Source of the DNA: an uncultured Rhodospirillaceae bacterium
Lineage (GTDB): Bacteria; Pseudomonadota; Alphaproteobacteria; UBA8366
Length of the DNA stretch: 64,000 nt
Direction: 5' to 3'
Assembly (NCBI GenBank): GCA_964585785.1
Contig: CAZPFL010000001.1
Span: forward strand, 70,097 to 134,096
In this document: positions 9,794-64,000 of the stretch, piece after piece
Layout of the letters: the number at the start of each line of letters is the position of its first letter
Position numbering within the stretch: the stretch's first letter is position 1
Notes under the pieces: model-generated
Databases searched by the model: none
What the model saw: only the letters and a program-made list of their open reading frames with translations
Told to the model about the DNA's origin: nothing
Position numbers and translations under genes: made by a program

Positions 9794-10810
9794 ATGAAGT
9801 ACGGATTTTTCATTCGCGGGCAGTATCGCCAAGGCGACGACATGGTGGCCCGGTTCAAGGAGCTGATGGAACAGGCGCGGCTCGCCGACAAGCTGGGTTT
9901 CTCGGACCTGCTCACCGGCATGCATTACGCGAGCTATCCGCTGAGCCAGTTCCAACTCATCCCCTTCCTGTCGCGCGTGATGGTCGAGGCGCCGAATATG
10001 CGCATCGTGACCGGCATCATCCTGCTGTCGCTGCACAAGCCGCTCGATATCGCCGAGCAGCTCGCGACGATCGACGTGATGTCGGAAGGCCGCCTGGTGT
10101 TCGGCTCGGGGCTCGGCTACCGCGATGTTGAGTTCAAGGGCTTCGGCACGAACCAGAAAGAGCGCGTGCCGCGGCTAATCGAGAATCTCGAGGCGATCAA
10201 GAGGCTGTGGACCGAAGACCACGTCAACATGAAGGGCTCGCATTTCGAGCTTGCGGATTGCACGCTTGCGCTCAAGCCGTTGCAGAAGCCGACGCCGCCG
10301 ATCTGGCTCGGCGCGAACGCCGATGGCGCGGTGCGGCGTGCGGCGAAGCTGGCCGACACCTGGTTCATCAACCCGCACCAGCGCATGGACACGATCGAGC
10401 GCCAGCTCAGCATCTACAAGCAGGCGCTGGCCGAGTTCGATAAGCCCTTCCCGAAGGAGTTGCCGCTGATGCGCGAGATCTTCGTCGCCAAATCGCGCGA
10501 CGAAGCGGTGCGTCTCGCCCGGCCCTATCTCGAGGAGAAGTACAAGGTCTATCACGAGTGGGGCCAGGACAAGGCGATGCCCAAGGGCGACGATGACCTG
10601 TCGCTCGACTTCGACGAGCTGACGCGTGACCGCTTCCTGTTCGGCTCGCCCGACGAGGTCGCCGAGCAGATTATCGGCTACAACAAACGGCTCGGCATCA
10701 CCCATCTGATGCTCGGCCTACATTGGGTCGGCATGCCGCAGAGCCAGGTCACCGACAGCATGCATCTGTTCGCCGAGGAGGTCATGCCCAAGGTGAAGCA
10801 GGCGCTCTGA
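9794..10810 (+). CDS. Luciferase-like (LLM class) oxidoreductase, paralog 4
   Basis: 338 aa, MKYGFFIRGQYRQGDDM..., with the same conserved blocks. Confidence 0.85.
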   Translation: MKYGFFIRGQYRQGDDMVARFKELMEQARLADKLGFSDLLTGMHYASYPLSQFQLIPFLSRVMVEAPNMRIVTGIILLSLHKPLDIAEQLATIDVMSEGRLVFGSGLGYRDVEFKGFGTNQKERVPRLIENLEAIKRLWTEDHVNMKGSHFELADCTLALKPLQKPTPPIWLGANADGAVRRAAKLADTWFINPHQRMDTIERQLSIYKQALAEFDKPFPKELPLMREIFVAKSRDEAVRLARPYLEEKYKVYHEWGQDKAMPKGDDDLSLDFDELTRDRFLFGSPDEVAEQIIGYNKRLGITHLMLGLHWVGMPQSQVTDSMHLFAEEVMPKVKQAL

Positions 10811-10829
10811 CCGCGGCGGATCTGCCGCA

Positions 10830-11900
10830 TCAGAAGCGCAGCGAGAGCGCGAGCGACCCGAAGTCGTCGAAGCCCTTCTGGCCGTGGAACTCCGGCGAGC
10901 GGAAGTCCTGGGTGTAGGAGACGCGGAAGCGCTGGAAGGTGACGGCGACGCCCGCCTGAAAGTCTGCGACGACGGGAATCTTATCGACGCTGCGGCTGTC
11001 GGCGAAGGTGTTGCCGTCGAGGAAGATGTTGCGGCCAACCACGCGTCCCTCGACCCCGCCGAAGAAGTACCAGCCGAAGTTATCCTCGGGCAGGAAGAAA
11101 TCGGATCCGGGCAGGTTGGGACGGATCTTGGGCGGTCCGTAATCCGCCGGTAGGTCCTTGCCGAACCGGCCCATGAACCCGGCGGCGCCATATGTCATGA
11201 CATTGCCGAGCGCGACGCCGGCATGGGGCGTGAAATCGAACGCCAGATGCTGGATCGGAATGATCTTGGAAACCGGCAGCTCGAACAGGCTGCGGCGGCT
11301 GCGCTCGTAATAAAGCTCGAGACCGGGCTCGGTCTTCAGCTGATAGTCCCAGCCGCGCGGTTTCTTGAAGCCGAAGATCCGGTGCCATTCGGTCTGTGTC
11401 TGCCGGGCGAAGGAATAGGGCCCGACGATGCCGAGCTCGACGTCGAGCTTGTCGAGCCAGGTGCCGCTGTCGGAAACGAGGCCCAGCCCGCCATAGAGCC
11501 AGCCTGCATAGGGCCGGTCCTTGGTCGATGGAACGGCCAAAGTGGTATCCGCGGGCGTGTAGATGTTCTGCCCGATCGAGAAGCTGAACCGCATGTTGTA
11601 GGTCGTCTTGAACAGCGGCAGGATCTCGCCGAGCCGGCGCATGGGCGCCGGGACCGCGCCCTCCGGCGACAGGTAGGCCGCGCGCATGCCGTTGGTGAAA
11701 TGCTTGTCGCTGCCGCCGAAGAAATCGTTGTCGAATTGCAGCGTCACGAAGCTGGACGGATCGAGCGGCTTTTTCGCCTTTTCCGGCGGGTCGTCTGCTT
11801 TAGCCGCAGCGATGCTTGCCAGCGTGATCGCTGCGGACAGCAGAAGCGACAGCAGGCTCTGGGATGTTCGGTGTGGCAAGGGCGCCCTGTTGAACGGCAT
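10830..11900 (-). CDS. LpxR-family (DUF2219) outer-membrane beta-barrel protein, lipid A 3-O-deacylase-like
   Basis: It has a signal peptide (LLSLLLSAAITLASIAAAKA/DD). The block FVTLQFDNDFFGGSDKHFTNG resembles the LpxR family. The C-terminus ...ALSLRF is a terminal-Phe barrel signature. Its start is 5 nt after the fbiC stop. Confidence 0.65.
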   Translation of the reverse strand: MPFNRAPLPHRTSQSLLSLLLSAAITLASIAAAKADDPPEKAKKPLDPSSFVTLQFDNDFFGGSDKHFTNGMRAAYLSPEGAVPAPMRRLGEILPLFKTTYNMRFSFSIGQNIYTPADTTLAVPSTKDRPYAGWLYGGLGLVSDSGTWLDKLDVELGIVGPYSFARQTQTEWHRIFGFKKPRGWDYQLKTEPGLELYYERSRRSLFELPVSKIIPIQHLAFDFTPHAGVALGNVMTYGAAGFMGRFGKDLPADYGPPKIRPNLPGSDFFLPEDNFGWYFFGGVEGRVVGRNIFLDGNTFADSRSVDKIPVVADFQAGVAVTFQRFRVSYTQDFRSPEFHGQKGFDDFGSLALSLRF

Positions 11901-50941: not shown

Positions 50942-51019
50942 CACGCGGCCCGGTCCCGGTCTCACGACGATGCCGCCGACCGGCCGCGCGAGCCTTACGC
51001 GGACAGTCAGGCGGACGCG

Positions 51020-52096
51020 ATGGAAGACCTGAATCAGCTACGGGACGAATTGCTGGCGGCGGTTGCGGCCGCCGGGGACCCGGATGCGCTCGACGTGGTG
51101 CGGGTCAACGCGCTCGGCCGCAAAGGACGCATCACTGAGCTGATGAAAGGGCTGGGCGCGCTCGATCCCGACGCGCGCCGCGCCGCCGGCCAGGCGCTGA
51201 ACGGCGTCAAGACGGTTGTTACCGATGCCATCGAGCAGCGCAAGCAGGCGCTTGATTCCGTCGCACTCGAGTCCCGGCTGGGGGCCGAGTCGGTCGACGT
51301 GTCGCTGCCTGTGCGCCCGGAGCGGCAAGGCCTTCTGCACCCGATCAGCCAGACGATCGACGAAGTCATCGCCATCTTGGGCGAGATGGGCTTCGCGGTC
51401 GCCGAAGGGCCGGAGATCGAGGACGACTTCCATAACTTCAGCGCGCTCAACATCCCGCCCGAGCATCCGGCGCGCCAGATGCACGACACCTTCTATCTGA
51501 CCGAGAAACCGGACGGCAGCCGCCTCGTGCTGCGGACGCATACCTCGCCGGTGCAGATCCGGACGATGGAGACGACCGAGCCGCCGATCCGCATCATCGT
51601 GCCGGGCCGCACCTATCGCAGCGATTCCGACATGACGCACACGCCCATGTTCCACCAGGTGGAAGGGCTGGTGATCGACAAGTCGTCCCATTTCGGTCAT
51701 CTCAAGGGCTGCCTGATCGAGTTCTGCAGCGCCTTCTTCGAGGTGGCCAACGTGCCGCTGCGCTTCCGGCCGAGCTACTTCCCCTTCACCGAGCCTTCGG
51801 CCGAGGTCGACATCAACTGCTCGCGCCAGGGCAACACGCTGAAATTCGGCGAAGGCGACGGCTGGCTCGAGATCGCCGGCTGCGGCATGGTCCATCCGAA
51901 CGTGCTCAAGGCCTGCAAGATCGACCCGAATGTCTACCAGGGCTTCGCCTTCGGCATCGGGGTCGAACGCCTGGCCATGCTGAAATACGGCATCCCCGAC
52001 CTCCGCACCTTCTTCGAGGCGGACGTCCGCTGGCTCAAGCATTACGGCTTCCTGCCGCTCGAGGTGCCGACCCTCCTCCGGGGGCTGGAGCCATGA
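51020..52096 (+). CDS. pheS: Phenylalanine--tRNA ligase alpha subunit
   Basis: 358 aa, with [28 protein letters not shown] and FPFTEPS. Confidence 0.95.
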
Positions 52097-54495
52097 AGTT
52101 CACGCTCGGCTGGCTCAAGGATCATCTCGCGACGGATGCGCCGCTGGACGACATCGTCGAGCGCCTCACCATGCTCGGGCTCGAGGTCGAAGGGGTGGAG
52201 AACCCCGCCACGGATTTCGCCGACTTCCGCGCCGCACGCGTCGTCGAGGCGAAGCAGCATCCGGACGCGGACCGGCTTCGCGTGTGCGTGGTCGACACGG
52301 GCAGCGGGACGGTCCAGGTCGTCTGCGGCGCGCCGAACGCGCGCACCGGCCTGAAGGGCGTGTTCGCGCCCGCGGGGAGCTACGTCCCCGGCACGGCGCT
52401 GCTCCTGAAGAAGAGCAAGATTCGCGGCGTCGAATCGAACGGCATGCTGCTGTCGGAGCGCGAGCTCGGGCTGTCGGACGAGCATGCCGGGATTATCGAG
52501 CTGCCCGAGGATACGCCGGTCGGCGCGCCCATCGCAGCGGTGCTCGGCCTCGACGAGCCGGTGATCGAGCTTGCGGTGACGCCGAACCGGGGCGACTGCC
52601 TCGGCGTGCGCGGCGTCGCGCGCGATCTCGCCGCCGCGGGCGTCGGCACGCTGAAGCCGTTCAAGGATGAAGCCGTTCCCGGCCGCTTCAAGAGTCCGGT
52701 GCAGTGGCGCCGCGACTTTCCCGCGGGCGCTGGCGATGCCTGTCCGATGGTCGTGGGCCGCGCCTTCCGCGGCGTCAAGAACGGGCCGAGCCCGAAATGG
52801 CTGCAGGATCGTTTGAAGGCGATCGGGTTGCGTCCGATCTCGGCGCTGGTCGACATCACCAACTACATCACCTTCGACCTTTGCCGGCCGCTGCACGTGT
52901 TCGACCTCGCCCGCGTGTCGGGCGATCTCACCATGCGCTTCGCGCGCGACGGCGAGACGCTGCAGGCGCTCGACGGGCGCACCTACATGCTCGAAGACGG
53001 CATGACCGTCATCGCCGACCCGACCGGCGTGAAGGCGATCGCGGGCATCATGGGCGGCGAGGCGTCCGGCTGCACCGAGGACACCACCGAGTTGTTCCTC
53101 GAAGTCGCCCTGTTCGACCCGATCCGCACGGCGATGACCGGGCGCAAGCTTGGCATCAATTCCGACGCACGCTACCGCTTCGAGCGCGGCCTCGATCCGC
53201 AATCGGCGCTCTGGGGCGCCGAGGTCGCTGCCCGTATGATCCTGGACCTTTGCGGCGGCGAGGCGAGCGAATTGACCGTGGCGGGCGAGATGCCGAGCTG
53301 GCACCGGAGCGCCACGCTGCGGCCGGAGCGCCTGAAGACATTCGGCGGCGCGGACGTGCCGCAGGACGCAGCAGTGGCGATCCTCGATCGGCTCGGCTTC
53401 GAGACCGAGGTCGAGAAAGGCCGAATCGTCGCCGGCATTCCGTCATGGCGGCCTGATGTCGAGGGCGAACACTGCCTGGTGGAGGAGGTCCTCCGCGTGC
53501 ACGGCTTCGACAATATCCCCGCGGTGTCGCTGTCGCGCGTGACGGCGTTGCCCGAGCCGGCGCTGACGCCGGCGCAGCGCCGCGTCGCCCTGGCGCGCCG
53601 CCAGCTTGCCGGCCGCGGCATGATGGAGGCGGTGACCTGGTCCTTCATGGCCGCCGCGCAGGCGCGGCTGTTTGCCGACATTCCCGAGACGCTGCGCCTG
53701 GCGAATCCGATCAGCGCCGAGCTCGACGTGATGCGCCCGTCGATCCTGGCGAATCTCGCGACCGCCGCGAAGCGCAACGCGGATCGCGGCTTCGCCGACG
53801 TGGCGTTGTTCGAGATCGGCCCGGCGTGGCGCGACGATACGCCCGCAGGACAGGACACGGTCGCCGCGGGGCTACGGCATGGCGGGGTGGCGCCGCGCCA
53901 TTGGGACGTGAGGGCCCGTCCGGTCGACGCCTTCGATGCGAAGGCGGATGCGCTGGCGGTGCTTGCGGCGGTCGGCGCGCCGGTGGAGAACCTGCAGACC
54001 GATCGCACCGCGCCAGGCTATTACCATCCGGGCCGCTCGGGCGTGCTGCGCCTTGGCCCGAACGTGCTCGCGCAGTTCGGCGAGCTGCACCCGTCGGTGC
54101 TGCGCGGCCTCGACGTCGACGGCCCGGCCGTCGGGTTCGAAGTCTTCCTCGGCCGCGTGCCGCTGCCGAAAGCCAAGACCGGCCGCGCGCGTCCGCCGCT
54201 CGACGCGTCGCCCTTCCAACCGGTCAGCCGCGACTTCGCCTTCGTCGTCGCCGCCGACGTGCCGGCGGAGTCGGTGGTGCGTGCCGCGCAGTCGGCCGAG
54301 AAGGGGCTGATCACCGACGTCACGGTCTTCGACGTGTTCGAAGGCGAAGCCCTGGGCGTGGGGCGCAAGTCGGTCGCGATCTCGGTGACGCTGCAACCGC
54401 GCCAGGCGACGATGACCGACGCGGAGATCGACGCGGTCGCCGCCAAGATCGTCGCCAATGTCGAGAAGCGCGCGGGCGGCGTGCTGCGCGGCTGA
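52093..54495 (+). CDS. pheT: Phenylalanine--tRNA ligase beta subunit
   Basis: 800 aa. It has an ATGA overlap with pheS and starts [12 protein letters not shown]. The tRNA-binding, B3/4, B5 and FDX-ACB regions are recognisable. Confidence 0.95.
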
Positions 54496-54562
54496 GCGCG
54501 TCGACGGCGGCGCGCACCTGCCCGTAAATCACTGAAAATTCACCCCTCATTAAGGCAAAATT

Positions 54563-54605
54563 AACTGCTAAAGCAGTTGACTGGCGGCGGCATCGATTGT
54601 ATTTG
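54563..54605 (+). promoter_or_regulatory. Putative promoter with an overlapping palindromic operator
   Basis: The perfect 16-bp palindrome AACTGCTAAAGCAGTT (54563-54578) overlaps the -35 TTGACT (54577-54582), followed by 17 nt and TATTTG (54600-54605). Confidence 0.35.
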
Positions 54606-54675
54606 CGCCGTCACGAAGACCCGGCGAAGTGCGGTCGGATGTTGAACCGCGGTTCGAGCGACGGATGGCCGGGCA

Positions 54676-55323
54676 ATGGCGACTAAAGTGCGCAAGCATT
54701 CCTATGTAATTCCCTGTTCCAGCGATTTTCGCGATGCCGTGCAGGCGCTGGCCGACCGCCGCGAGGTCAATGTCGGCGACATCGCGCGCTCGGTCATGCT
54801 GATCATCTCGCATGACACGATCGTCGCCTGCCCCGATCCCGGCGAGCCGGGCGCGAACGACCGCGAGACGGTGATCCTCAAATCAGGTCCGAACAAGGGC
54901 AAGCCCTGGCGCCGCAAGCCGCGCCTGCAGGCGCGCCTGCCCGGCGGCTACAAGGTCGGCGATATCCGCCGCGCGCTCGGCGTGGCGCTGGCGCTCAACA
55001 TGGGGGAGATCACGGTCAGCCTGGAAGACGGCCGCGCGCCGAAGGCAAAGGAACGCATCCGCGCCCTCAATGACGAGATCGCGCGCCTTCGGGCGGCCAT
55101 GTCGGTCGTCGCGATGGATCCGCTGCCCCACGGCGTGCGCAATGCCGACGAGGCGCTTTTCGTGCTCGGCTTCCCGCCGGGCAGCAAGCCGAACCAGACC
55201 GAGGTCAAGGCGCGCTTCCGCATGCTGGCGACGATCCATCACCCGGACGCGCCCTTTGGCGACACGCGGCGCATGTCGCAGCTCAATCAGGCGATGTCCT
55301 GGTTGCGCGCGGGCGCGGCGTAA
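54676..55323 (+). CDS. J-domain (DnaJ-like) protein with a possible ribbon-helix-helix-like N-terminus
   Basis: The C-terminal EALFVLGFPPGSKPNQTEVKARFRMLATIHHPDAPFGD carries the HPD motif. The N-terminal HSYVIPCSSDFRDAVQALADRREVNVGDIARSVMLII has a strand-helix-turn-helix pattern. Confidence 0.65.
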   Translation: MATKVRKHSYVIPCSSDFRDAVQALADRREVNVGDIARSVMLIISHDTIVACPDPGEPGANDRETVILKSGPNKGKPWRRKPRLQARLPGGYKVGDIRRALGVALALNMGEITVSLEDGRAPKAKERIRALNDEIARLRAAMSVVAMDPLPHGVRNADEALFVLGFPPGSKPNQTEVKARFRMLATIHHPDAPFGDTRRMSQLNQAMSWLRAGAA

Positions 55324-55366
55324 CGGTTCTTCGCCGGCGCAACGGCAATCGCGCGCCGGTTTTTCT

Positions 55367-56257
55367 TCAGCGGGTTTTCGGGATTGTCGTGCCGGCCCAT
55401 TTGGCGACCCAGGCGGCGATCTGGGTGATGTCCTGCGCGCCGCCGCCCATCGCCTTCACGATGCGGATGAGCTGGCGGACCGACTGGCAGACCGGCATCG
55501 GCACGCCAAGCGCCTCGCCTTCCGAAAGCGCGAGGTCCACGTCCTTGATCATGATGTCGAGCGCCGCGCCGAAGTCGAAGGCGCCGGTGAGCACATGCTC
55601 CGGGATCTTCTGCAGGGTCGCGCTGTTGCGGCCGCTGCCGATGTTGATCGCCTGCAGCATCGTCTCGGGGTCGAGACCGGCCTTGATGCCCATGACCAGC
55701 GCCTCCGACGTCGCGGCCAGCGCGGTCGCCGACAGGATGTTGTTGGCGAGCTTGAGACTCTGCGCCATGCCGGGCTTTTCGCCGACATAGGTGACCTTGC
55801 CCAGCACCGCGAGCGCCGGCTCGAGCTTAGCAAAGGCGTCCTTCGGGCCCGACGCCATGATCGACAGCGTGCCCGCGGCCGCGCCCGACGGGCCGCCGCT
55901 GATCGGGCAGTCGATGGTGACAATGTTCGCTGCCGCCAGCTCCTTCTCCATGTCTGCGACGAAGCGGGTGCCGACGGTGCCCATGTTGACGAAGATGCGC
56001 ACCGCCTTGCCGCCGCGGACGCCATCGTCGCCCAACGCCACCGCGCGGTAGGCGGCGAGCGACGGGAGCGAGGCGCAGACGAGCTCTGTTTCGTCGGCGA
56101 CCGCGCGGGCCGAGCCGACGATGCGGGCCTGGCGCTCGGCCAGCGGGCGCACGGCCGCGTCGCGCGTGTCATGCACGACCAGCTGGTGCCCCGCCTCCAG
56201 CAGGCGGTCGCACATCGGCCGCCCCATGTTGCCGACTCCGATGAAGCCGATTTTCAT
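55367..56257 (-). CDS. NAD(P)-dependent beta-hydroxyacid dehydrogenase (3-hydroxyisobutyrate dehydrogenase family)
   Basis: 296 aa, with MKIGFIGVGNMGRPM, DCPISGG and LKLANN. Confidence 0.85.
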   Translation of the reverse strand: MKIGFIGVGNMGRPMCDRLLEAGHQLVVHDTRDAAVRPLAERQARIVGSARAVADETELVCASLPSLAAYRAVALGDDGVRGGKAVRIFVNMGTVGTRFVADMEKELAAANIVTIDCPISGGPSGAAAGTLSIMASGPKDAFAKLEPALAVLGKVTYVGEKPGMAQSLKLANNILSATALAATSEALVMGIKAGLDPETMLQAINIGSGRNSATLQKIPEHVLTGAFDFGAALDIMIKDVDLALSEGEALGVPMPVCQSVRQLIRIVKAMGGGAQDITQIAAWVAKWAGTTIPKTR

Positions 56258-56333
56258 ATCCGTATTCCTCTCTCAAGCTGCGGCGTTGGCCAAGGATAGG
56301 CGGAGGGTACGCATCACGCCAAACGCCGCCCGA

Positions 56334-57548
56334 TTACAGCCCGCGCTCGCGGAATCCGAAGGCCAGCACCACGACGCCGATGGCGACCAGGCCGGCGCAG
56401 AGATACCAGCCGCTGTCGAACAACCCCGTCACGTCCACGACCCAGCCGAACAGCGGCGGCCCCGCGATGCTGCCGACATAGGTGCCGACCAGCGTGTAGC
56501 CGGTGGCCGAGCCGGCAAGACGCGGCGCGACCGCCTCGACCGCCATGGTCTGCATCAGCGGCGCGTAAGACGCGATGGTGATGCCGAGCAGCCCTGAAAG
56601 CGCAACGGCCATGATCATGCCGGCGCGCGGCTCGATCGCCGCCATGCTGGCCAGCAGGACGGTGGCGCTCGCGCCAATCGCGACCGTCAGCGCCTTGCGC
56701 CGGCCCTTGAACAGGAAGTCGCTGATCGTGCCCCAGCCGAGCCGTCCGATGACGCTCGCCGTCTGGGCGATGCCGTAGCAGAGGCCGGCGAACTCCTGGC
56801 TCACCTGCGCCGCTTCGCGCACGAACAGCGTGAGATAGGAGAAGAAGTTCTGCTGGCCGACATTGTGCAGCATGTTCGACAGCACGAAGCGCCCGAAGTT
56901 GAAGTCCTTCGCCACTTCGCCGAGCGTGCCGAAGCGGCTGCTGCTCGCGGTCGCCGGGCGGGGGCGCGGCTTCTCGACGAACAGCAGGCAGACCATGCCG
57001 CCGAGCACGGTGACCGCCGCGACGGTGAAAGTGATCCAATGCCACGCGCCAGGCCGGGCGAAGGCGCCGAGCGAGGCCGAGATCACGCCGCCCAACGGGA
57101 CCCCGGTCTGCTTGATCCCCATCGCGGTGCCGCGGCGCGCCGGCGGAAATGACTCGAACACGCCCTTGGCCGTCGCCGGGTTGACGATGGAATAGCCCCA
57201 CCCGGTCACGACCATGGCGGCGAAGCCGAGCCAGAGGCCGGTCGCCTGGGTCAGCATGACGGCGCCAATAACGAGAAACGCATGGGCGAGAACCAGCGCC
57301 CAGCCGACGCCGACGCGGTCCGCGAGATGGCCGGCCGGTAGCGAGCCGGTGATCTGTCCGATGCTGTAGGCGGTCACCAGCAGGCCGAACTGCGCGAAGC
57401 TGAGCGACAGATCGGCCTTGATCACCGGCGCCATTACCACGAGCGTGGTGATGTGCAGCGTGCCGACAACATGCGCCAGCGTCAGGATGGGAAGCCACAT
57501 CCGCCACGGGTTCGCCGTTGGAGTCAGCGGCTCGTCGGTCTCGCTCAC
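56334..57548 (-). CDS. MFS transporter
   Basis: About 404 aa and about 12 hydrophobic segments. It has the loop motif LADRVG. The start is probably the GTG at 57548. Confidence 0.8.
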   Translation of the reverse strand: MSETDEPLTPTANPWRMWLPILTLAHVVGTLHITTLVVMAPVIKADLSLSFAQFGLLVTAYSIGQITGSLPAGHLADRVGVGWALVLAHAFLVIGAVMLTQATGLWLGFAAMVVTGWGYSIVNPATAKGVFESFPPARRGTAMGIKQTGVPLGGVISASLGAFARPGAWHWITFTVAAVTVLGGMVCLLFVEKPRPRPATASSSRFGTLGEVAKDFNFGRFVLSNMLHNVGQQNFFSYLTLFVREAAQVSQEFAGLCYGIAQTASVIGRLGWGTISDFLFKGRRKALTVAIGASATVLLASMAAIEPRAGMIMAVALSGLLGITIASYAPLMQTMAVEAVAPRLAGSATGYTLVGTYVGSIAGPPLFGWVVDVTGLFDSGWYLCAGLVAIGVVVLAFGFRERGL

Positions 57549-57566
57549 GGTGGTTCTTCGATGCGC

Positions 57567-58406
57567 TTAGTGCGGTTTGTCGCCCGCCAGGATGATGCGA
57601 TAGAGCAGGCGGAGCTCTTGGAAATCGTAGTCGGCGGTGGCTTTGTGGATGCAGCACCGGTTGTCCCAGATCACCATGTCGCCGGGACGCCAGTGATGCG
57701 TATAGGTGAATTCCGGCCTAGTCGAATGCGTGACCAGGCGATCGATGAGGTCGGCGGAGCTTTCGGGCGTCATGCCGCGGAACCGGCGCACCCGCAACGG
57801 ATTGAGATAGATTGCCCGGCGGCCGTTCTCGGGATGGGTGCGGATCAGCGGATGCACGACGCCGTCTGATACATCATCGTCGCCGGCGGCAATGCGCTCG
57901 GCGAGGCTCGGTGGCATGCGGCTTTCCGTGTAGGCGTGCACGGCTTCGAGGTCGTCGACCTCGGCGCGCAGCGTTTCGGGCAGCGCGTCGTAGGCGGCAC
58001 CCATATGCGCCCAGCGCGTGTCGCCGCCCTTGCTCGGCAGCGCGACCGCGAACAGGACTGTCGCCTTCGGCGGCTCCGGCTGGAAGGAATGGTCGGTGTG
58101 CCAGCTCACGCCGCGCACGTTGATCTTGCCGTCCTTGGTCTTTTCCTGGTTCGAGATGGTCGCCACGTCCGGGCAGTCCGGCAGGTTGAATCGCTCCAGA
58201 TGCTGGCGGACGGGTTCGCCGAACAGCCGGGCGGCGGCGAGGAATTGCGGCGCGTCGAGCGTCTGGTCGCGGATAACCAGCAGGGCGCGATCGACGAAGG
58301 CGCGCCGCAGCCGGTCCGCGGTCTCGGCGTCGAGGTGGCGGGAAAGGTCGGCGCCGGTAATCTCCGCGCCGAGCGGGTCGGAGAGATTTCGGATCGAGAC
58401 CGCCAT
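57567..58406 (-). CDS. TauD/TfdA-family Fe(II)/2-oxoglutarate dioxygenase, copy 1
   Basis: 279 aa. It has WHTDHSF (H.D facial triad), a distal HHW region, and the C-terminal WDNRCCIHKA. Confidence 0.85.
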   Translation of the reverse strand: MAVSIRNLSDPLGAEITGADLSRHLDAETADRLRRAFVDRALLVIRDQTLDAPQFLAAARLFGEPVRQHLERFNLPDCPDVATISNQEKTKDGKINVRGVSWHTDHSFQPEPPKATVLFAVALPSKGGDTRWAHMGAAYDALPETLRAEVDDLEAVHAYTESRMPPSLAERIAAGDDDVSDGVVHPLIRTHPENGRRAIYLNPLRVRRFRGMTPESSADLIDRLVTHSTRPEFTYTHHWRPGDMVIWDNRCCIHKATADYDFQELRLLYRIILAGDKPH

Positions 58407-58431
58407 TCCCTTTCCCCTCGGCGGCCGTCGG

Positions 58432-60024
58432 TCAGGAGGTCACGACGCGGAAGGCGGCGTCGCCGTCGGCTTCGATCTGTGCCGGGAGCTGCTCTTCCCA
58501 GCTCAGATATTCGCGCATCGAGACTTCGTTGCCCTGGTGCCGGTCGTGCACGAAGAACAGGTAGTCGATGCGCTCGGAATCGGGCGGCACGCCGGGCGAA
58601 GCCTCGGTCGGCAGGCCCGCCTTGGTCCAGGCCTCGCGCCCGCCCTTGAGGATGGCGACCGGCGCGTCGGTCAGCGCCTGCAGGTCCGGAACCGCGAGCC
58701 GGGCGCGCATCTCGTGCTCGGAATAGAGCACGATGCGCTTGCCCTTCGGCAGCTTTGGCGCCAGCCGGCCGAGTCGCGGCCGAATGCCCCAAAGCGCGCC
58801 CGGCAGATGCGCCTTGCTGTAATCGCCGGAGAGGTCCACGTCGACGGCGACGGCCGTGCCGTCCTTCAACGCCTTGGCCAGATCCTGCGGCGTGATCTCC
58901 TCGGCGGCGATCTTGTCGACCCCGAGCACACGCCGTGCCGGCATTCCTGTCTCGGTGCCGGCCGCGCCGATGCCGCCTTCCAGGACATGCACGTCCCAGC
59001 CCATCTGCACCAGCCAGTGCGCCGCGGTGATGGCGCGCACTTCCGTGTCGTCGGTCAGCACGACGCGGGCGCCCCGCGTGCCGACCCAGCTATCCGTGCG
59101 CTGAACGAGCTGGCCGCCCGGCGCATGCGCCGCGCCCGGCAAATGGCCGGCCTCGTACTCCTCCTTGCTGCGCACGTCGAGGACGTAGAGCGTGCGGGTC
59201 GTGTCGCCGCGCCACTTGTCCACGGTCGCGCGGTCCACTTTGCGCACGCCGAATTTTTTCGCCATCGCGTCGGCGCGCGCCTTCGCTTCCTTGAGGCCCG
59301 CCGCGGAGACGTCCGGGTATTTCCGTGCCGCGCCGTGGTCCAGCTCGAAGCCGGCGAGCCGCCAGCCCATCGTGCCGGCGCGCAGCGCGACAACCTTGTT
59401 GGGGATGCCGGCGTTGCGCAGCGTCTGCGCGCCGATAATGCTGCGTGTCCGGCCGGCGCAGTTGACGACGACGGTGGTCTTCGGCGACGGCGCGATGTCG
59501 TGGATGCGGTAAACCAGCTCGGCGTTCGGCACGCTGATGCCGTTCGGGATGCTCATCCGTTTGTATTCTTCCGGCGTGCGCCCGTCGACGACGACCAGAT
59601 CCTCGCCCTTGTCGAACATCGCGTGCAGCTCGGCTGCCGTGATCGACGGCGTGTGCGCCGCATGCTCGACCACTTCGCCGAAGGCCTTCGACGGCACGTT
59701 CTCGCCCTTGAAGATCACATAGCCGGCCTTCTTCCAGGCATCGACGCCGCCGTCGAGGACCGCGACGTCGGTGAAGCCGACCGCCGCCATGCGCTCCGCG
59801 GCGCGCTCCGCCACGCCATCGCCGCCGTCGACCAGCACGGTCCGCACCGTTCGCCGCGGCAGCAGTGTGTCCAGGCGCGATTCGAGCACGCTGTAGGGCA
59901 CCGGCACCGTCAGCAGAAGATGGCCTTCGCCGAACTGGCCGTCCTCGCGGACGTCGAGGAGGGCCAGCTCCTTGCCGTCCTTGATCATCGTTTTCAGCGT
60001 CGCGGCGTCGATGCGTCTCGTCAT
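58432..60024 (-). CDS. Multi-rhodanese-domain sulfurtransferase-like protein
   Basis: 530 aa, with about four rhodanese-like modules (recurrent L.DVR...E...GH.PGA patterns). The single Cys of the whole protein sits in the active-site-like loop VNCAGRTRS. Confidence 0.8.
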   Translation of the reverse strand: MTRRIDAATLKTMIKDGKELALLDVREDGQFGEGHLLLTVPVPYSVLESRLDTLLPRRTVRTVLVDGGDGVAERAAERMAAVGFTDVAVLDGGVDAWKKAGYVIFKGENVPSKAFGEVVEHAAHTPSITAAELHAMFDKGEDLVVVDGRTPEEYKRMSIPNGISVPNAELVYRIHDIAPSPKTTVVVNCAGRTRSIIGAQTLRNAGIPNKVVALRAGTMGWRLAGFELDHGAARKYPDVSAAGLKEAKARADAMAKKFGVRKVDRATVDKWRGDTTRTLYVLDVRSKEEYEAGHLPGAAHAPGGQLVQRTDSWVGTRGARVVLTDDTEVRAITAAHWLVQMGWDVHVLEGGIGAAGTETGMPARRVLGVDKIAAEEITPQDLAKALKDGTAVAVDVDLSGDYSKAHLPGALWGIRPRLGRLAPKLPKGKRIVLYSEHEMRARLAVPDLQALTDAPVAILKGGREAWTKAGLPTEASPGVPPDSERIDYLFFVHDRHQGNEVSMREYLSWEEQLPAQIEADGDAAFRVVTS

Positions 60025-60052
60025 AGTCTTGCGTTCTCCAGATTCGTTCGAG

Positions 60053-60898
60053 TCAGACCGGGCGGGTGCCCTTGAGCAGGATGCGTTGGTGCAGGCGCGT
60101 CTGGCCGACCGGGAAATCCATGTTGACCGCGTGCATCAGGCAGCGGTTGTCCCACAGCAGGATATCGCCGACGCGCCATTTGTGGTGGTACTGGTATTTC
60201 GGCTGGGTCACGTGTTCGTAGATCATGTCGAGCAGGGCGTCGCTCTCTTCCCGTCCCATGCCGACGATCTGATCCGTCCGGTTGGAGTTGAAATAGATCG
60301 TCTTCTCCCCCGTGTCCTCATGGGTGCGGACCAGCGGGTGGTCGACGTCCGGAGTCTCGTCTGCTTCCTCCTGCGTCAGCTTGATCGCGCGGGCGGGCGC
60401 GCGCTTGGTGTCGTAGCCGTGCACCGCGCGCAGGCCTTCGAGGCGCCGCCGCTGCGCTTCCGGCAGGTCGAGATAGGCCTTCCGCATGTTGCAGAACTTC
60501 GTCTCGCCGCCGCTTTCCGGGATCTGGATCGACTGCAGCATGGTCGCCTTGGCGGGCACGGCGAAGTAGGAATCGTCGGTGTGCCAACCCGAAAGGCGCA
60601 CCAGGCGCATGTCGTCCGGTTTGTCCTCCGGGCGCTTGTAGGTGCTTTCGAGGATGCTGACCTCCGGCGTCTCGCCGTGCCGCCGCTTGCGCAGAAGCTG
60701 CAGCTGCGGGCTGCCGAAATAGCCGGCCACCCGGGCGAACTCGCTCGGCTCGAGCGGGGCGCTGCGGAAACAGAGAAGATGGTGCTTGAGGAAGGCCTCC
60801 CGGATCGCCGAGATCGTGTCATCGTCCTGGGGTTCGGTCAGGTCGAGGCCCGTGATTTCCGCGCCGAGGGCATCGCTGAGCGGTCTGATTTGCAGCAT
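60053..60898 (-). CDS. TauD/TfdA-family Fe(II)/2-oxoglutarate dioxygenase, copy 2
   Basis: The ORF was trimmed to the ATG at 60898, where AGGAGG lies 8 nt upstream. It starts MLQIRPLSDALGAEITG and has WHTDDSY and WDNRCLMHAV. Confidence 0.8.
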   Translation of the reverse strand: MLQIRPLSDALGAEITGLDLTEPQDDDTISAIREAFLKHHLLCFRSAPLEPSEFARVAGYFGSPQLQLLRKRRHGETPEVSILESTYKRPEDKPDDMRLVRLSGWHTDDSYFAVPAKATMLQSIQIPESGGETKFCNMRKAYLDLPEAQRRRLEGLRAVHGYDTKRAPARAIKLTQEEADETPDVDHPLVRTHEDTGEKTIYFNSNRTDQIVGMGREESDALLDMIYEHVTQPKYQYHHKWRVGDILLWDNRCLMHAVNMDFPVGQTRLHQRILLKGTRPV

Positions 60899-61058
60899 CG
60901 GGACTGCCTCCTGCGAATGGCCGAGGGAAAGAAGCGTCGCCAAGGACGGAAAACGGGCTTGCCATCGACGGCAAGCGGGCGAACAGGGCCGTTTCCTCGT
61001 TCTTGAGCGTTTATCGCGAGACTATAAAGCGGCGGCGGCCCCGGGCGCAAACCGCCGC

Positions 61059-61850
61059 TCAATGATTCAACGCGGCGACGCCCTTCCAGATCAGCGCCAC
61101 CGAGGCGACCAGCAGCAGGAGGCGGAAGGCGCCGAAATAGCGCTGCGCCGAGAGCTTCATGGCGAACCGCCGGCCGGCCCAGCCGCCCGCATAGACCGCC
61201 GGCATCACCAGGGCGGATTCGATCACGAGCTTGAGCGTGATCAGCCCGGCGACGAGCGTCACGACGGCGCGCCACAGCACCATGAAGCCGGAGAGCACGA
61301 TATTCGTGGCGCGGAACGCGCGCGGGTGTGGCGTCGTCCAGCGCAGATAGAAAGACAGGAAATAGTTCGATCCGGCGCCGGCGATCCCGGCGACCAGCCC
61401 GGCGATCGCGGCGAGCCCGAAGGCGACGGACAGCCGGTCGAGCCGCATGTGCCGGGCCGCGCGCTCCGCCAGCCCCGCCACGTCGATCAGCACCGCCACG
61501 GAAAGGCAGCCGCCCAGCACGATGGTCAGCCACGCCGCCTTGAGGACGGCGAAGATCCAGACGCCGACCACCACGGATATGACCGTGCCGGCCATCATCG
61601 GTTTCGTGATGCGCCAGTTCGCCTCCTTCATCCCCTGTGGCAAGAGCTGCACCTGGGCGAAGACCGAGGTCAGCAGCGCGATCAGCACGGCGTCATGCGG
61701 CGGCAGCATCCAGGCGCTGCCCAGGACGGCGGGCATGGCGGAGCCGAAGCCGAGGATTCCACGAATGAAAAACGACAGGAAATAGATGATGAAGAGGCCC
61801 GTGACGGCCAGGCCCGAGATGTTGGTAAAGGGAACGATCGTATCGGGCAT
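61059..61850 (-). CDS. TauE/SafE (TSUP) family sulfite/anion exporter
   Basis: 263 aa and polytopic. It contains the G-rich blocks GFGSAMP and IAGAGSNYF, typical of the TSUP family. Confidence 0.75.
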   Translation of the reverse strand: MPDTIVPFTNISGLAVTGLFIIYFLSFFIRGILGFGSAMPAVLGSAWMLPPHDAVLIALLTSVFAQVQLLPQGMKEANWRITKPMMAGTVISVVVGVWIFAVLKAAWLTIVLGGCLSVAVLIDVAGLAERAARHMRLDRLSVAFGLAAIAGLVAGIAGAGSNYFLSFYLRWTTPHPRAFRATNIVLSGFMVLWRAVVTLVAGLITLKLVIESALVMPAVYAGGWAGRRFAMKLSAQRYFGAFRLLLLVASVALIWKGVAALNH

Positions 61851-62089
61851 ACGCGGCGAGATTGTTTGGCAGGGCAGGCGGGCAGGCGGACTTCATGAGA
61901 GTACAAATTCATTATAATCCGGAAATCCACTTTCGCAAAAATCCGGGGCCACGCATGCATTTGCGGCGGCTGGCCAGTCACCGTCCGCCCGGCTATAAGG
62001 GGACCAGCTTTCATCGCCCCAGGGTGCAGCCGGCCGTCATGGCCGAGACCAAATAGGCCCCCCGGGCCAATGCCGGAAGGAACAAGCGC

Positions 62090-62485
62090 ATGTCCAACAA
62101 GATCTATCATATCGCCGTGAAAGTGCCCGATATCGACAAGGCCAAGGCCTTCTACAAGAACTTGTTCGGGTTCGAGGAGCTGAAGCAGTCGAAGGTGCGC
62201 GACCACACTTCCTGCCATCTGACAGACGGCGTCATCGATCTCGCGATCATCCAGTATGAGAGCGAGGACTCGCCCGAGGCCGGGCTGTCCGGCGACGGCC
62301 CCTGCATCCATCACTTCGGCGTGGAGGTCGAGGATCTCGAGACCTCGCACGGTCAGCTGAAGGAGATGGGCTGCGAGATATTGTCGAAGCCTGGGGTTCT
62401 ACCGATCAAGTTCCGCTCACCTTTCGGCGTGGTCGCGGAGATCTCGCCGTCCGGCTACTTCGAAACCAAGCACAAGAACGGCTAG
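62090..62485 (+). CDS. VOC (glyoxalase/bleomycin-resistance/dioxygenase) family protein
   Basis: 131 aa, with IYHIAVKVPDIDKAKAFY and IHHFGVEVEDLE (paired beta-alpha-beta-beta-beta modules with metal ligands). Confidence 0.8.
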   Translation: MSNKIYHIAVKVPDIDKAKAFYKNLFGFEELKQSKVRDHTSCHLTDGVIDLAIIQYESEDSPEAGLSGDGPCIHHFGVEVEDLETSHGQLKEMGCEILSKPGVLPIKFRSPFGVVAEISPSGYFETKHKNG

Positions 62486-62539
62486 GAGCGGCGGGCACGC
62501 GCCCGTTCGTCACGGGACGGGCGCGGGCCGCCATCGGCC

Positions 62540-62920
62540 ATGCTTGAGCTTTGCCGCCTCGCGGACATCCCCGACGGCGGGGCGTGCGGCTTTGCCGTGG
62601 AGGGGCCCGGCTTCGCCCAGCGCCTCGTCGTGGTTCGCTGCGGCGACGCCGTTCACGGCTACGTCAATTCCTGTCCGCACGTGCCTTCGCGGCTCGACTT
62701 CACCCCCGGCGACTTCCTCGACGAGACCGGATGCCTGCTCCAATGTCAGGGGCACGGCGCGCTCTTCCGTTTCGAGGACGGATTCTGCATCGACGGCCCT
62801 TGTGAAGGGCAATCGCTTCATCCCGCGCCGGTACGCGTCGCGGACGGCTGCGTCTGGCTCGACCGTACGGGCGCCGCCCTCGTCGACGAGATCAGCAAGG
62901 TCCTTTCCGACCTTCAATAG
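62540..62920 (+). CDS. Rieske [2Fe-2S] domain protein
   Basis: 126 aa with the Rieske ligands CPH (NSCPHVPSRL) and C..H (LQCQGHGALF). Confidence 0.8.
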   Translation: MLELCRLADIPDGGACGFAVEGPGFAQRLVVVRCGDAVHGYVNSCPHVPSRLDFTPGDFLDETGCLLQCQGHGALFRFEDGFCIDGPCEGQSLHPAPVRVADGCVWLDRTGAALVDEISKVLSDLQ

Positions 62921-62961
62921 CCGCAAGAAACGTCACGCAAGGAAGAATTGGACGACGGGCC

Positions 62962-63870
62962 ATGGTTGAGTTGTGGATACCGATTACGATCGGCGCGGTG
63001 ATTTTTCAGACCATCCGTACCGGAATGCAGAAGCATCTCAAGGGGGCGCTGACGACGAGCGCCGTCACGTATGTGCGGTTTCTGTTCGGCTTTCCGGTCG
63101 CTGTGCTGTATCTCGTCATTTTGCTGGGGACGACCGGCCAGGCGATGCCGCGCGTCTCGGCCGCCTTCGTTTTCTACGTCTTCCTCGGCGGCGCCGGGCA
63201 GATCCTGGGCACCTTTCTGCTCGTCCACCTGTTCTCCTTCCGCAACTTCGCGGTCGGCACGACCTACACCAAGACGGAGGCGATCCAAACCGCGCTGATC
63301 GGCCTTGTCTTCTTCGGCCAAACGATGAGCTGGCCCGGCTTCCTTGCGATCGTCGTCAGCGTTACCGGGGTGATGATCATCTCGATCGTGCATGGGCACG
63401 CGACGCTGCGCGGCTTCCTCACCAGCTGGACGAACCGGATCGCGGCCTACGGCGTGCTGTCCGGCGCGGGTTTCGCGGTGGCGGCGGTCGGCGTGCGGGC
63501 GGCAAGCCTGTCGCTCCACCTGGATGGTTTTCTCGTGCCGGCTGCGGTCACGCTGGTCTGGGTCACGGGCATGCAGGTCGTGGCGATGAGCGTCTACATG
63601 CTGTGGCGCGAGCGCACGCAGATCGCGGCGATCTTTCGCATCTTCCGGTTCTCGTCCCTCGTCGGGCTCACCGGCGTGCTCGGCTCGATCTGCTGGTTCA
63701 ACGCCATGACTCTGCAGAACGCGGCCTATGTGCGGACCTTGGGACAGGTCGAGCTGATCCTGTCGCTGCTCACCTCCTACATCGTGTTCAAGGAGCGGTC
63801 GACCCGTTTTGAGATCATCGGCATGGTGATGATCGTCGTCGGCATTGTCATTCTGCTGCTCTTTCGCTGA
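62962..63870 (+). CDS. DMT-superfamily (EamA-like) transporter
   Basis: 302 aa with 10 predicted TM segments in a two-fold repeat architecture. Confidence 0.75.
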   Translation: MVELWIPITIGAVIFQTIRTGMQKHLKGALTTSAVTYVRFLFGFPVAVLYLVILLGTTGQAMPRVSAAFVFYVFLGGAGQILGTFLLVHLFSFRNFAVGTTYTKTEAIQTALIGLVFFGQTMSWPGFLAIVVSVTGVMIISIVHGHATLRGFLTSWTNRIAAYGVLSGAGFAVAAVGVRAASLSLHLDGFLVPAAVTLVWVTGMQVVAMSVYMLWRERTQIAAIFRIFRFSSLVGLTGVLGSICWFNAMTLQNAAYVRTLGQVELILSLLTSYIVFKERSTRFEIIGMVMIVVGIVILLLFR

Positions 63871-64000
63871 GCCGCGGCGGGTCACGGTAGAGCTCGGGCC
63901 AGATAACGGCGACGATGGCGAGCAGCACGAGGCCTTCGCCTGTCATCACGATGATCGCCCCGTTGGCGCCGAGCCAGGCGGCGAGCAGGCCGAGATTGAG
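63848..64000 (-). CDS. C-terminal fragment of a hydrophobic membrane protein (gene continues past the window end)
   Basis: It is not in the ORF track. The reverse complement from 64000 reads LNLGLLAAWLGANGAIIVMTGEGLVLLAIVAVIWPELYRDPPRLSERAAE*, with strong GC3 bias. Its 3' end overlaps the EamA gene end. Confidence 0.3.
   Translation of the reverse strand, partial: LNLGLLAAWLGANGAIIVMTGEGLVLLAIVAVIWPELYRDPPRLSERAAE

Follow-up and report, generated by a model that had tools for sequence, protein, structure and literature searches.

A recurring TauD-rhodanese-TauD gene cluster in an uncultured Rhodospirillaceae bacterium and its probable role in organosulfur metabolism

Layout of the cluster and its recurrence in other genomes

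We analysed a gene cluster in a 64,000-nt window of DNA from an uncultured Rhodospirillaceae bacterium (contig CAZPFL010000001.1), in which a large rhodanese is encoded between two dioxygenases of the TauD/TfdA family. All positions given refer to this window, and codes such as L001 denote loci in other genome or metagenome sequences that were compared with it. Analysis of the open reading frames (ORFs) of the window places the six genes (g1 to g6) from 61850 down to 55367, every one on the minus strand, and their coordinates leave gaps of 160, 28, 25, 18 and 76 nt between them. The genes are as follows.

61059-61850, minus strand: g1, TauE/SafE (TSUP-family) permease; 263 aa; Pfam TauE 80 bits
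60053-60898, minus strand: g2, TauD/TfdA-family Fe(II)/2-oxoglutarate (2OG) dioxygenase, type a; 281 aa; Pfam TauD 234 bits
58432-60024, minus strand: g3, four-domain rhodanese of the PA2603/1YT8 family; 530 aa; Pfam Rhodanese in four stretches, 178 bits
57567-58406, minus strand: g4, TauD/TfdA-family dioxygenase, type b; 279 aa; Pfam TauD 217 bits
56334-57548, minus strand: g5, MFS_1 transporter; 404 aa, GTG start; Pfam MFS_1 183 bits
55367-56257, minus strand: g6, beta-hydroxyacid dehydrogenase (HIBADH/tartronate-semialdehyde-reductase family); 296 aa; NAD_binding_2 and NAD_binding_11

An earlier sequence-only reading of this stretch had named the same six genes, and its strand, domain calls and gaps all proved exact when compared with the ORF coordinates and Pfam. 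It had also pointed to two diverged TauD paralogs, to a large rhodanese between them and to a layout that differs from tauABCD and ssu. These points hold as well: g2 and g4 are 38% identical, g3 is separated from them by 28 and 25 nt, and the cluster lacks both an ABC transporter and an FMNH2 monooxygenase. We placed the start of g2 at the ATG at 60898, which is preceded by GGAGG and agrees with the homologues; the ORF list has an upstream TTG at 60943. Gene content, gene order, conservation, catalytic residues and family memberships, as given in the following, are direct observations.

Chance alone could place six genes in one direction, but it does not account for the same order in other genomes. 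For the comparison, genes were called by all-ORF clustering together with GC3-weighted calling, as greedy longest-ORF calling had dropped the rhodanese in 24 loci. We found eight other loci with a TauD gene beside the rhodanese, which represent about five lineages.

L001, L050 and L086: close relatives of the window cluster
L005 and L103: rhodanese 76% identical in L005
L088: full cluster without TauE; five TauD genes
L015, identical to L116: rhodanese 58% identical; L015 is a marine Rhodospirillaceae metagenome-assembled genome (MAG), L116 a metagenome contig with the same array
L014, 2038-8122: rhodanese 55% identical; partial MFS-rhodanese-TauD cluster in a Lake Baikal alphaproteobacterial MAG

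The triad of two TauD genes and a rhodanese, for which a conservation check had been proposed, is thus present in L001, L050, L086, L005, L103, L088 and L015/L116, but it is rare. The full clusters share a conserved core that consists of a type-a TauD, the rhodanese, at least one more TauD, the MFS transporter and a divergently transcribed VOC-Rieske pair (see below), and the recurring order is TauDa-rhodanese-TauDb/c-MFS. At least three old TauD types take part, namely type a (g2), type b (g4) and type c, which is the downstream gene of L005/L103; all three occur together in L088 and in L015. Type-a orthologues are 48-84% identical to g2, and type-b orthologues are 68% (L088) and 54% (TauD gene D7 of L015) identical to g4. 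The number of TauD copies is two in the window and in L005/L103, five in L088 and ten in L015.

The array of L015 (3935-21092) is the largest and almost contiguous. It comprises an MR/MLE gene, four TauE/TSUP genes that are 33-52% identical among themselves, two TauD genes, the rhodanese, seven further TauD genes, an NMT1-like gene, the MFS transporter and a tenth TauD gene on the opposite strand. Upstream of it lie genes for Rieske, VOC, asparaginase and Lyase_1 proteins. L014 reads class-V aminotransferase, AstE/AspA-type hydrolase, MFS, rhodanese and TauD-family gene. The window group, L005/L103 and L088 have common flanks, with a DnaJ-like gene and pheT downstream and CoA-transferase III, Amidohydro_2 and MFS_3 genes upstream. 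The remote support for the recurrence comes from L015 and L014. In the plasmid collection, matches to the rhodanese were below 60% identity and those to g2 reached at most 37%, and thus no cultured plasmid-borne copy of the cluster is present in that collection. To date, MAGs are the only genomes in which we have observed it.

Two side observations concern the close relatives. In L050, the genome most closely related to the window, the rhodanese appears at 10001-11594 as two overlapping ORFs (10001-11314 and 10851-11594), caused by a frameshift or by an error in the long-read assembly. Moreover, L001 (1-650) and L050 (2-631) carry a distant TauD-family gene about 9 kb upstream of the cluster, past the CoA-transferase III, Amidohydro_2 and MFS_3 genes; the equivalent region lies beyond the end of the window.

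The TauD-family dioxygenases and the rhodanese family

Both dioxygenases match Pfam PF02668 far above its cutoff (234 bits for g2 and 217 for g4 versus 27) and over profile positions 1-266 of 267. The Fe triad H99/D101/H255 and the 2OG ligands T126/R266, in the numbering of E. coli TauD (EcTauD), are invariant in 15 of 15 aligned sequences. In EcTauD, the sulfonate is bound by R270 and H70 (PMC12951627). Arg270 is retained in g2 and g4 and nearly always among 13 aligned cluster paralogs. Nevertheless, g2 and g4 share only 30-32% identity with EcTauD and score 175 and 182 bits against the taurine dioxygenase model NF007104, whose cutoff is 313. Their neighbours in the PDB are taurine dioxygenases, alkylsulfatases and phenoxypropionate dioxygenases, all equally distant. 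Judging from their sequences, g2 and g4 are predicted to be active 2OG oxygenases with an anion-binding arginine, and the sequence does not reveal the class of substrate. Solitary g2-type TauD genes showed no consistent partner among their neighbours and therefore provide no clue to the substrate; these neighbours include, at 3-5 loci each, an SDR, a small membrane protein, a MalY/PatB-like lyase (as judged from a sequence reading only) and an enoyl-CoA-hydratase-like protein.

The rhodanese g3 aligns over residues 16-528 with PDB entry 1YT8 (539 aa; E 6.5e-134), whose name 'thiosulfate sulfurtransferase' traces to a structural-genomics deposit; PA2603 is described as a probable thiosulfate sulfurtransferase (PMC12947264). 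With four domains, about 530 aa, one catalytic cysteine and a characteristic tail, g3 has the structural hallmarks of the PA2603/1YT8 type. Its sole cysteine, C189, is located in domain 2 within the loop NCAGRTRS. The equivalent positions in the other domains are D66, D325 and S435, which in the family are Asp, Asp and Ser/Ala, and the C-terminal tail YLxWE...DGD is conserved (alignment A1). The loop is identical in 87 of 87 family members, whatever gene adjoins. Since these partners act on different organic substrates, the invariant loop suggests that the rhodanese handles a common small sulfur species, e.g. sulfite or thiosulfate.

The family is large, with at least 8000 database proteins and at least 595 species representatives. 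In the loci that we sampled, the commonest neighbour of the rhodanese is a cupin encoded directly upstream (22 loci, median offset -5 nt), and a cupin lies beside it in 20 of the 58 genome loci that have at least 1 kb of sequence on either side. The PDB identifies the cupin as a mercaptosuccinate dioxygenase homologue (8VNI, E 2e-82). In three loci, cupin and rhodanese form a single ORF of ~726-733 aa (L032 9368-11569, L069 8509-10606 and L074 7725-9905), i.e., a gene fusion that joins both functions; these resemble the fusions of persulfide dioxygenase and rhodanese. In line with this, a g3 homologue of Pseudomonas is co-transcribed with 3-mercaptopropionate dioxygenase (PMC12947264), and in V. 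paradoxus B4 and A. mimigardefordensis mercaptosuccinate dioxygenase is likewise clustered with a rhodanese, in a route that leads via sulfinosuccinate to succinate and sulfite (PMC5373536). The link to organosulfur compounds that the sequence-only reading had drawn is strengthened by this finding that the usual partners of the g3 family are thiol dioxygenases.

A neighbour-joining tree placed the TauD-linked rhodaneses in one broad clade with unlinked members interspersed and L014 outside. On the Ralstonia solanacearum megaplasmid CP023017.1 (L166, 4222-7843), a gene annotated as 'cysteine dioxygenase' and a sulfurtransferase-metC pair are transcribed divergently, and this trio matches the one reported for the Advenella mercaptosuccinate cluster.

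Accessory genes, flanks and transcription signals

The remaining genes of the cluster are conserved to different degrees. The permease g1 covers the full PF01925 profile (80 bits, cutoff 32.6) and has counterparts in L001, L005, L050, L086 and L103 as well as the four tandem copies in L015, and none in L088. For g5, the nearest subfamily models are organic-anion types (D-galactonate/phosphoglycerate), with all NCBIfam matches below cutoff, and its orthologues occur in every full cluster. The dehydrogenase g6 matches NAD_binding_2 and NAD_binding_11 with 127 bits each, has 2-hydroxy-3-oxopropionate reductase as its best NCBIfam model (196 bits versus a cutoff of 397) and finds 3CKY and 1VPD in the PDB. 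It is confined to the window group and L005/L103. The earlier idea that TauE exports the released sulfite while the dehydrogenase processes the carbon skeleton is weakened by the lack of TauE in L088 and of the dehydrogenase in L088 and L015. The four diverged TSUP copies beside the ten TauD genes of L015 would fit the uptake of substrates as well as export.

Divergently from g1, a conserved unit of three genes is transcribed, which the sequence-only reading had overlooked. These genes and two features of the intergenic regions are listed below.

62090-62485, plus strand: VOC/glyoxalase-I-like protein, divergent from g1; 131 aa; Pfam Glyoxalase E 1.2e-13
62540-62920, plus strand: small Rieske-type [2Fe-2S] protein; 126 aa; CPH...CQGH ligand motifs
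62962-63870, plus strand: EamA-family (drug/metabolite transporter superfamily) membrane protein; Pfam EamA E 4.9e-13
61911-61938, minus strand: candidate sigma-70-like promoter 5' of g1, TTGCGA-16-TATAAT; 10 of 12 consensus matches
60899-61058, minus strand: conserved g1-g2 intergenic region of 160 nt with promoter-like hexamers and a palindrome

Every full cluster (L001, L005, L015, L050, L088, L103 and L116) has an orthologue of the VOC protein (206-280 bits), and the solved structures closest to this protein are those of methylmalonyl-CoA epimerase and glyoxalase I. A possible assignment as an ArsI-like C-As lyase was dropped, as the score was 28.7 bits versus a cutoff of 116. The Rieske protein shows weak NCBIfam and PDB matches to ferredoxin subunits of dioxygenases; its orthologues were identified by Pfam Rieske in L001 and L015 and lie beside the VOC gene in L088, L103 and L116. 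EamA, the third gene of the unit, adjoins the Rieske-VOC pair in L001, L005, L050, L088 and L103 and joins the core in four lineages.

Three loci carry an additional gene between the last TauD and the MFS transporter, which encodes an SsuA/NMT1-like protein of 295 aa (L005 12490-13377, L103 11511-12398 and L015 17824-18711) and is not found in the window. Its gene lies 29-40 nt from the upstream gene, which leaves too little space for a signal peptide, and ABC partners are missing, so that this protein would be a cytoplasmic binding-protein-like component. Downstream, the cluster is followed by a convergent gene and then by pheST. The convergent ORF of 215 aa (54676-55323), located between the cluster and pheT, has a weak C-terminal match to the DnaJ domain and occupies the same position in L001 and L103.

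The candidate promoter at 61938-61911 was the sole promoter-like site returned by a scan of 55000-62600 and is a consensus match only; L001 has a similar TTGCGA...TATAGT. The gap between g1 and g2 contains TTGCGC (61050-61045) and TATAGT (61026-61021) with an 18-nt spacer, followed at 60958-60975 by the palindrome or hairpin CTTGCCATCGACGGCAAG and then by CCCGTTTTCC. Both length and sequence of this gap are kept in L001, L050 and L086, and the two hexamers are unchanged even in L103 (alignment A4). The stem of CTTGCCATCGACGGCAAG shows a compensatory change in L086 (alignment A4), and the palindrome occurs once in the whole window. RNA folding of the hairpin in the gap (5' untranslated region) gave no significance (z -0.71), a scan for terminators found none between the cluster genes and no terminator-like site from g2 to g6, and an Rfam search of 54500-64000 returned no match. 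The element may act as operator, attenuator or weak terminator.

The promoter-like site and hairpin in the g1-g2 gap, together with the separate promoter-like site of g1, make two transcription units or an internal promoter likely. The single transcript implied by the earlier term 'six-gene operon' is therefore doubtful. We infer that g2 to g6 form one unit with its own promoter or regulatory element, while g1 is perhaps transcribed apart. In L015, by contrast, only 2 nt lie between the TauE genes and the TauD gene that follows them, unlike the 160-nt gap of the window.

Proposed function and alternative explanations

To place the cluster, we compared it with known systems. E. coli TauD (tauABCD) and the alkylsulfatases AtsK and Rv3406 share with g2 and g4 the fold and family (PF02668) as well as the Fe triad, the residues that bind 2OG and the anion clamp Arg270. 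The chemistry expected from this likeness would be alpha-hydroxylation yielding a sulfur oxyanion and an aldehyde. Unlike tauABCD, the window cluster has no ABC transporter and places multiple TauD paralogs around a rhodanese; more broadly, the six genes and their flanks include no ABC transporter or periplasmic binding protein and no FMNH2 monooxygenase or reductase, as would characterize tauABCD or ssuEADCB. The 3mdo-tst and msdo-rhodanese clusters likewise pair a rhodanese of the PA2603/1YT8 type with an Fe enzyme that depends on O2 and has organosulfur substrates, but there the partner is a cupin thiol dioxygenase, whereas in the window it is a TauD-family 2OG dioxygenase on each side.

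In the sulfo-ASDO pathway, the TauD-family enzyme SqoD cleaves the C-S bond for carbon assimilation, sulfite is released and a reductase acts on the aldehyde; SqoD binds the sulfonate without an Arg clamp (PMC12951627). The window cluster differs in lacking a glycosidase or sugar-handling gene and in the retention of Arg270 in g2 and g4, and the PDB matches of g2 and g4 included no SqoD entry. The tauE-cstA-cstB-sqr operon of S. aureus combines TauE, a multidomain sulfurtransferase and an Fe dioxygenase and forms thiosulfate (PMC5480029). The window locus similarly brings together a TauE-type permease, a multidomain sulfurtransferase and non-haem Fe dioxygenases. However, no metallo-beta-lactamase persulfide dioxygenase, SQR or CstR is encoded in window positions 51000-64000, and the dioxygenases of the cluster are predicted to depend on 2OG and to act on carbon rather than on persulfide sulfur. 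The cluster thus belongs to none of the tau, ssu, cst and sulfo-ASDO types, each of which has defining genes that are missing here. In the literature on TauD with rhodanese and TauE and on new 2OG sulfonate dioxygenases, we found no description of a TauD-rhodanese cluster. The phenoxypropionate dioxygenases RdpA and SdpA, which are among the best PDB matches of g2 and g4, are TauD-family paralogs kept together for related substrates, namely two enantiomers. Their substrates contain no sulfur, and their genes show no link to those for rhodanese, TauE or SsuA-like proteins.

We propose, and give an even chance of being right, that the cluster serves the oxygenolytic release of sulfur oxyanions from several related anionic organosulfur compounds, with the rhodanese acting on sulfite or thiosulfate. 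The substrates would most likely be aliphatic sulfonates and possibly sulfate esters. According to this proposal, the MFS permease, and perhaps also TSUP/TauE, would import the anionic substrates, and each TauD paralog, using Fe(II), 2OG and O2, would hydroxylate the sulfur-bearing carbon of its own substrate. The hydroxylated product would collapse to an aldehyde and sulfite (or sulfate). Cys189 of the rhodanese would then process the shared inorganic sulfur product, the likeliest reaction being that of a persulfide with sulfite to thiosulfate. Where carried, TauE may export sulfite or thiosulfate and the HIBADH-type enzyme may reduce or oxidise the carbon product, i.e., the aldehyde; the divergent VOC-Rieske-EamA unit would be a conserved accessory. 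Substrate class, direction of transport, rhodanese reaction and co-regulation are what we infer here. The proposal draws on the retained TauD residues, the recurring gene order, the oxygenase partners of the g3 family, its invariant loop, the SsuA-like gene in L005, L103 and L015 and the precedent of cst. A substrate with two sulfur-bearing positions had been suggested to explain the two TauD paralogs; TauD numbers of 2, 2, 5 and 10 depending on the lineage and the exchange of at least three old paralog types fit several substrates better.

Several observations weigh against this proposal. His70 is replaced by Gln in both g2 and g4, the taurine contacts Tyr73 and Asn95 are not conserved, Arg270 could bind a carboxylate just as well, and the PF02668 family holds many non-sulfur members. 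None of the six cluster proteins reaches an NCBIfam equivalog cutoff. The arrangement is rare, with TauD genes flanking the rhodanese on both sides in 3 and on one side in 1 of the 58 loci described above. Similarly, the rhodanese follows a g2-type TauD in 3 of the 17 orthologue loci with at least 1.8 kb of downstream sequence, the remaining loci having varied contexts. The shared flanks indicate that the window group, L005/L103 and L088 reflect vertical inheritance, and TauE and the dehydrogenase are accessory and lie outside the conserved core. Furthermore, no regulator was found among the cluster genes or flanks, and the cluster proteins show no shortage of Cys and Met (2.3-5.4% versus 3.0-3.9% in pheS, pheT and thrS). 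In Pseudomonas protegens, deletion of the g3 homologue, the sole genetic test that we came across, caused no significant change in 3-mercaptopropionate levels.

An alternative, which we consider unlikely, is that the substrates contain reduced or sulfane sulfur, as in thiosulfonates, S-sulfo compounds (Bunte salts) or thiols. The rhodanese might then remove or add sulfane sulfur on the organic substrate itself; or TauD might free thiosulfate from R-CH2-S-SO3-, which the rhodanese would split into sulfite and a persulfide. The position of g3 between both dioxygenases, with gaps of 25-28 nt, would suit such a scheme, as would the sulfinates produced by the thiol dioxygenases that accompany the g3 family; rhodaneses classically pass sulfur to sulfinates and take it from thiosulfonates. 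The same direction is indicated by genes beside family members in Ralstonia and L014, which encode MetC-type C-S lyases or class-V aminotransferases. However, the active-site loop stays the same whichever oxygenase adjoins, although the organic substrates of these contexts differ greatly, and a single rhodanese is surrounded by 2 to 10 TauD paralogs. To our knowledge, no TauD-family enzyme acts on thiosulfate esters or thiosulfonates. The sulfane-sulfur intermediate that had been suggested earlier is thus possible but not indicated.

It is improbable, in our view, that the dioxygenases act on substrates without sulfur, such as phenoxyalkanoates, betaines or amino-acid derivatives, and that the rhodanese is adjacent merely through synteny inherited in one alphaproteobacterial lineage. 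The PDB matches to (R)-phenoxypropionate and 2,4-D dioxygenases, with E-values like those of the taurine dioxygenases, are consistent with this explanation, and so are the flanking genes common to the window group, L005/L103 and L088, the asparaginase, Lyase_1 and MR/MLE genes that adjoin the L015 array, and the fact that most g2-type orthologues occur without a rhodanese in varied contexts. Against it, the order is retained in the remote L015, whose rhodanese is 58% identical, despite an otherwise different context, and L014 shows MFS-rhodanese-TauD in a further one. TauE and SsuA-like genes accompany the array, and the known partners of the g3 rhodanese family are all organosulfur oxygenases.

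Equally improbable is that the same chemistry serves assimilatory sulfur scavenging under sulfate limitation (compare tauD/atsK/ssu) rather than carbon catabolism: sulfur acquisition is the role of most known Fe/2OG enzymes acting on sulfonates (PMC12951627), and some lineages do without the dehydrogenase and TauE, but the Cys and Met contents given above show no depletion, the window cluster encodes both a putative exporter of sulfite or thiosulfate and a dehydrogenase for carbon processing, and neither an ABC importer nor a regulator of the Cbl/CysB type is present among the cluster genes or flanks.

Beyond the cluster, the oxyanion-release proposal can be widened, in a form that we put forward tentatively and regard as doubtful. 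The PA2603-type rhodanese may be a dedicated and general partner of Fe(II) oxygenases that release sulfite or form sulfinates, and the variable TauD arrays, with 2 to 10 paralogs and as many as four TSUP permeases, may represent an unrecognised catabolism of an entire family of natural sulfonates or sulfate esters in soil and marine Alphaproteobacteria. The rhodanese would turn nascent sulfite or sulfinate into thiosulfate or a thiosulfonate, and the oxygenases served would be mercaptosuccinate dioxygenase, 3-mercaptopropionate dioxygenase and TauD-type enzymes. If true, a common sulfite-handling partner of three unrelated oxygenase classes would explain the recurrent gene pairing.

Taken together, our analysis describes a real, conserved, rare and uncharacterised cluster that probably functions in the removal of sulfur from organosulfur compounds and in the handling of sulfite. 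A large part of the organic sulfur in soil and sea consists of organosulfonates and sulfate esters, and few substrates of the TauD family are known (taurine, alkyl sulfates and sulfoquinovose). Old TauD paralogs that are conserved as an array and come with dedicated transporters would point to new desulfonation substrates, and the cluster would offer a first functional handle on a widespread four-domain rhodanese with a crystal structure. The cluster is of value chiefly for the cross-family pattern seen around this rhodanese and for the large TauD/TSUP arrays that some marine relatives carry.

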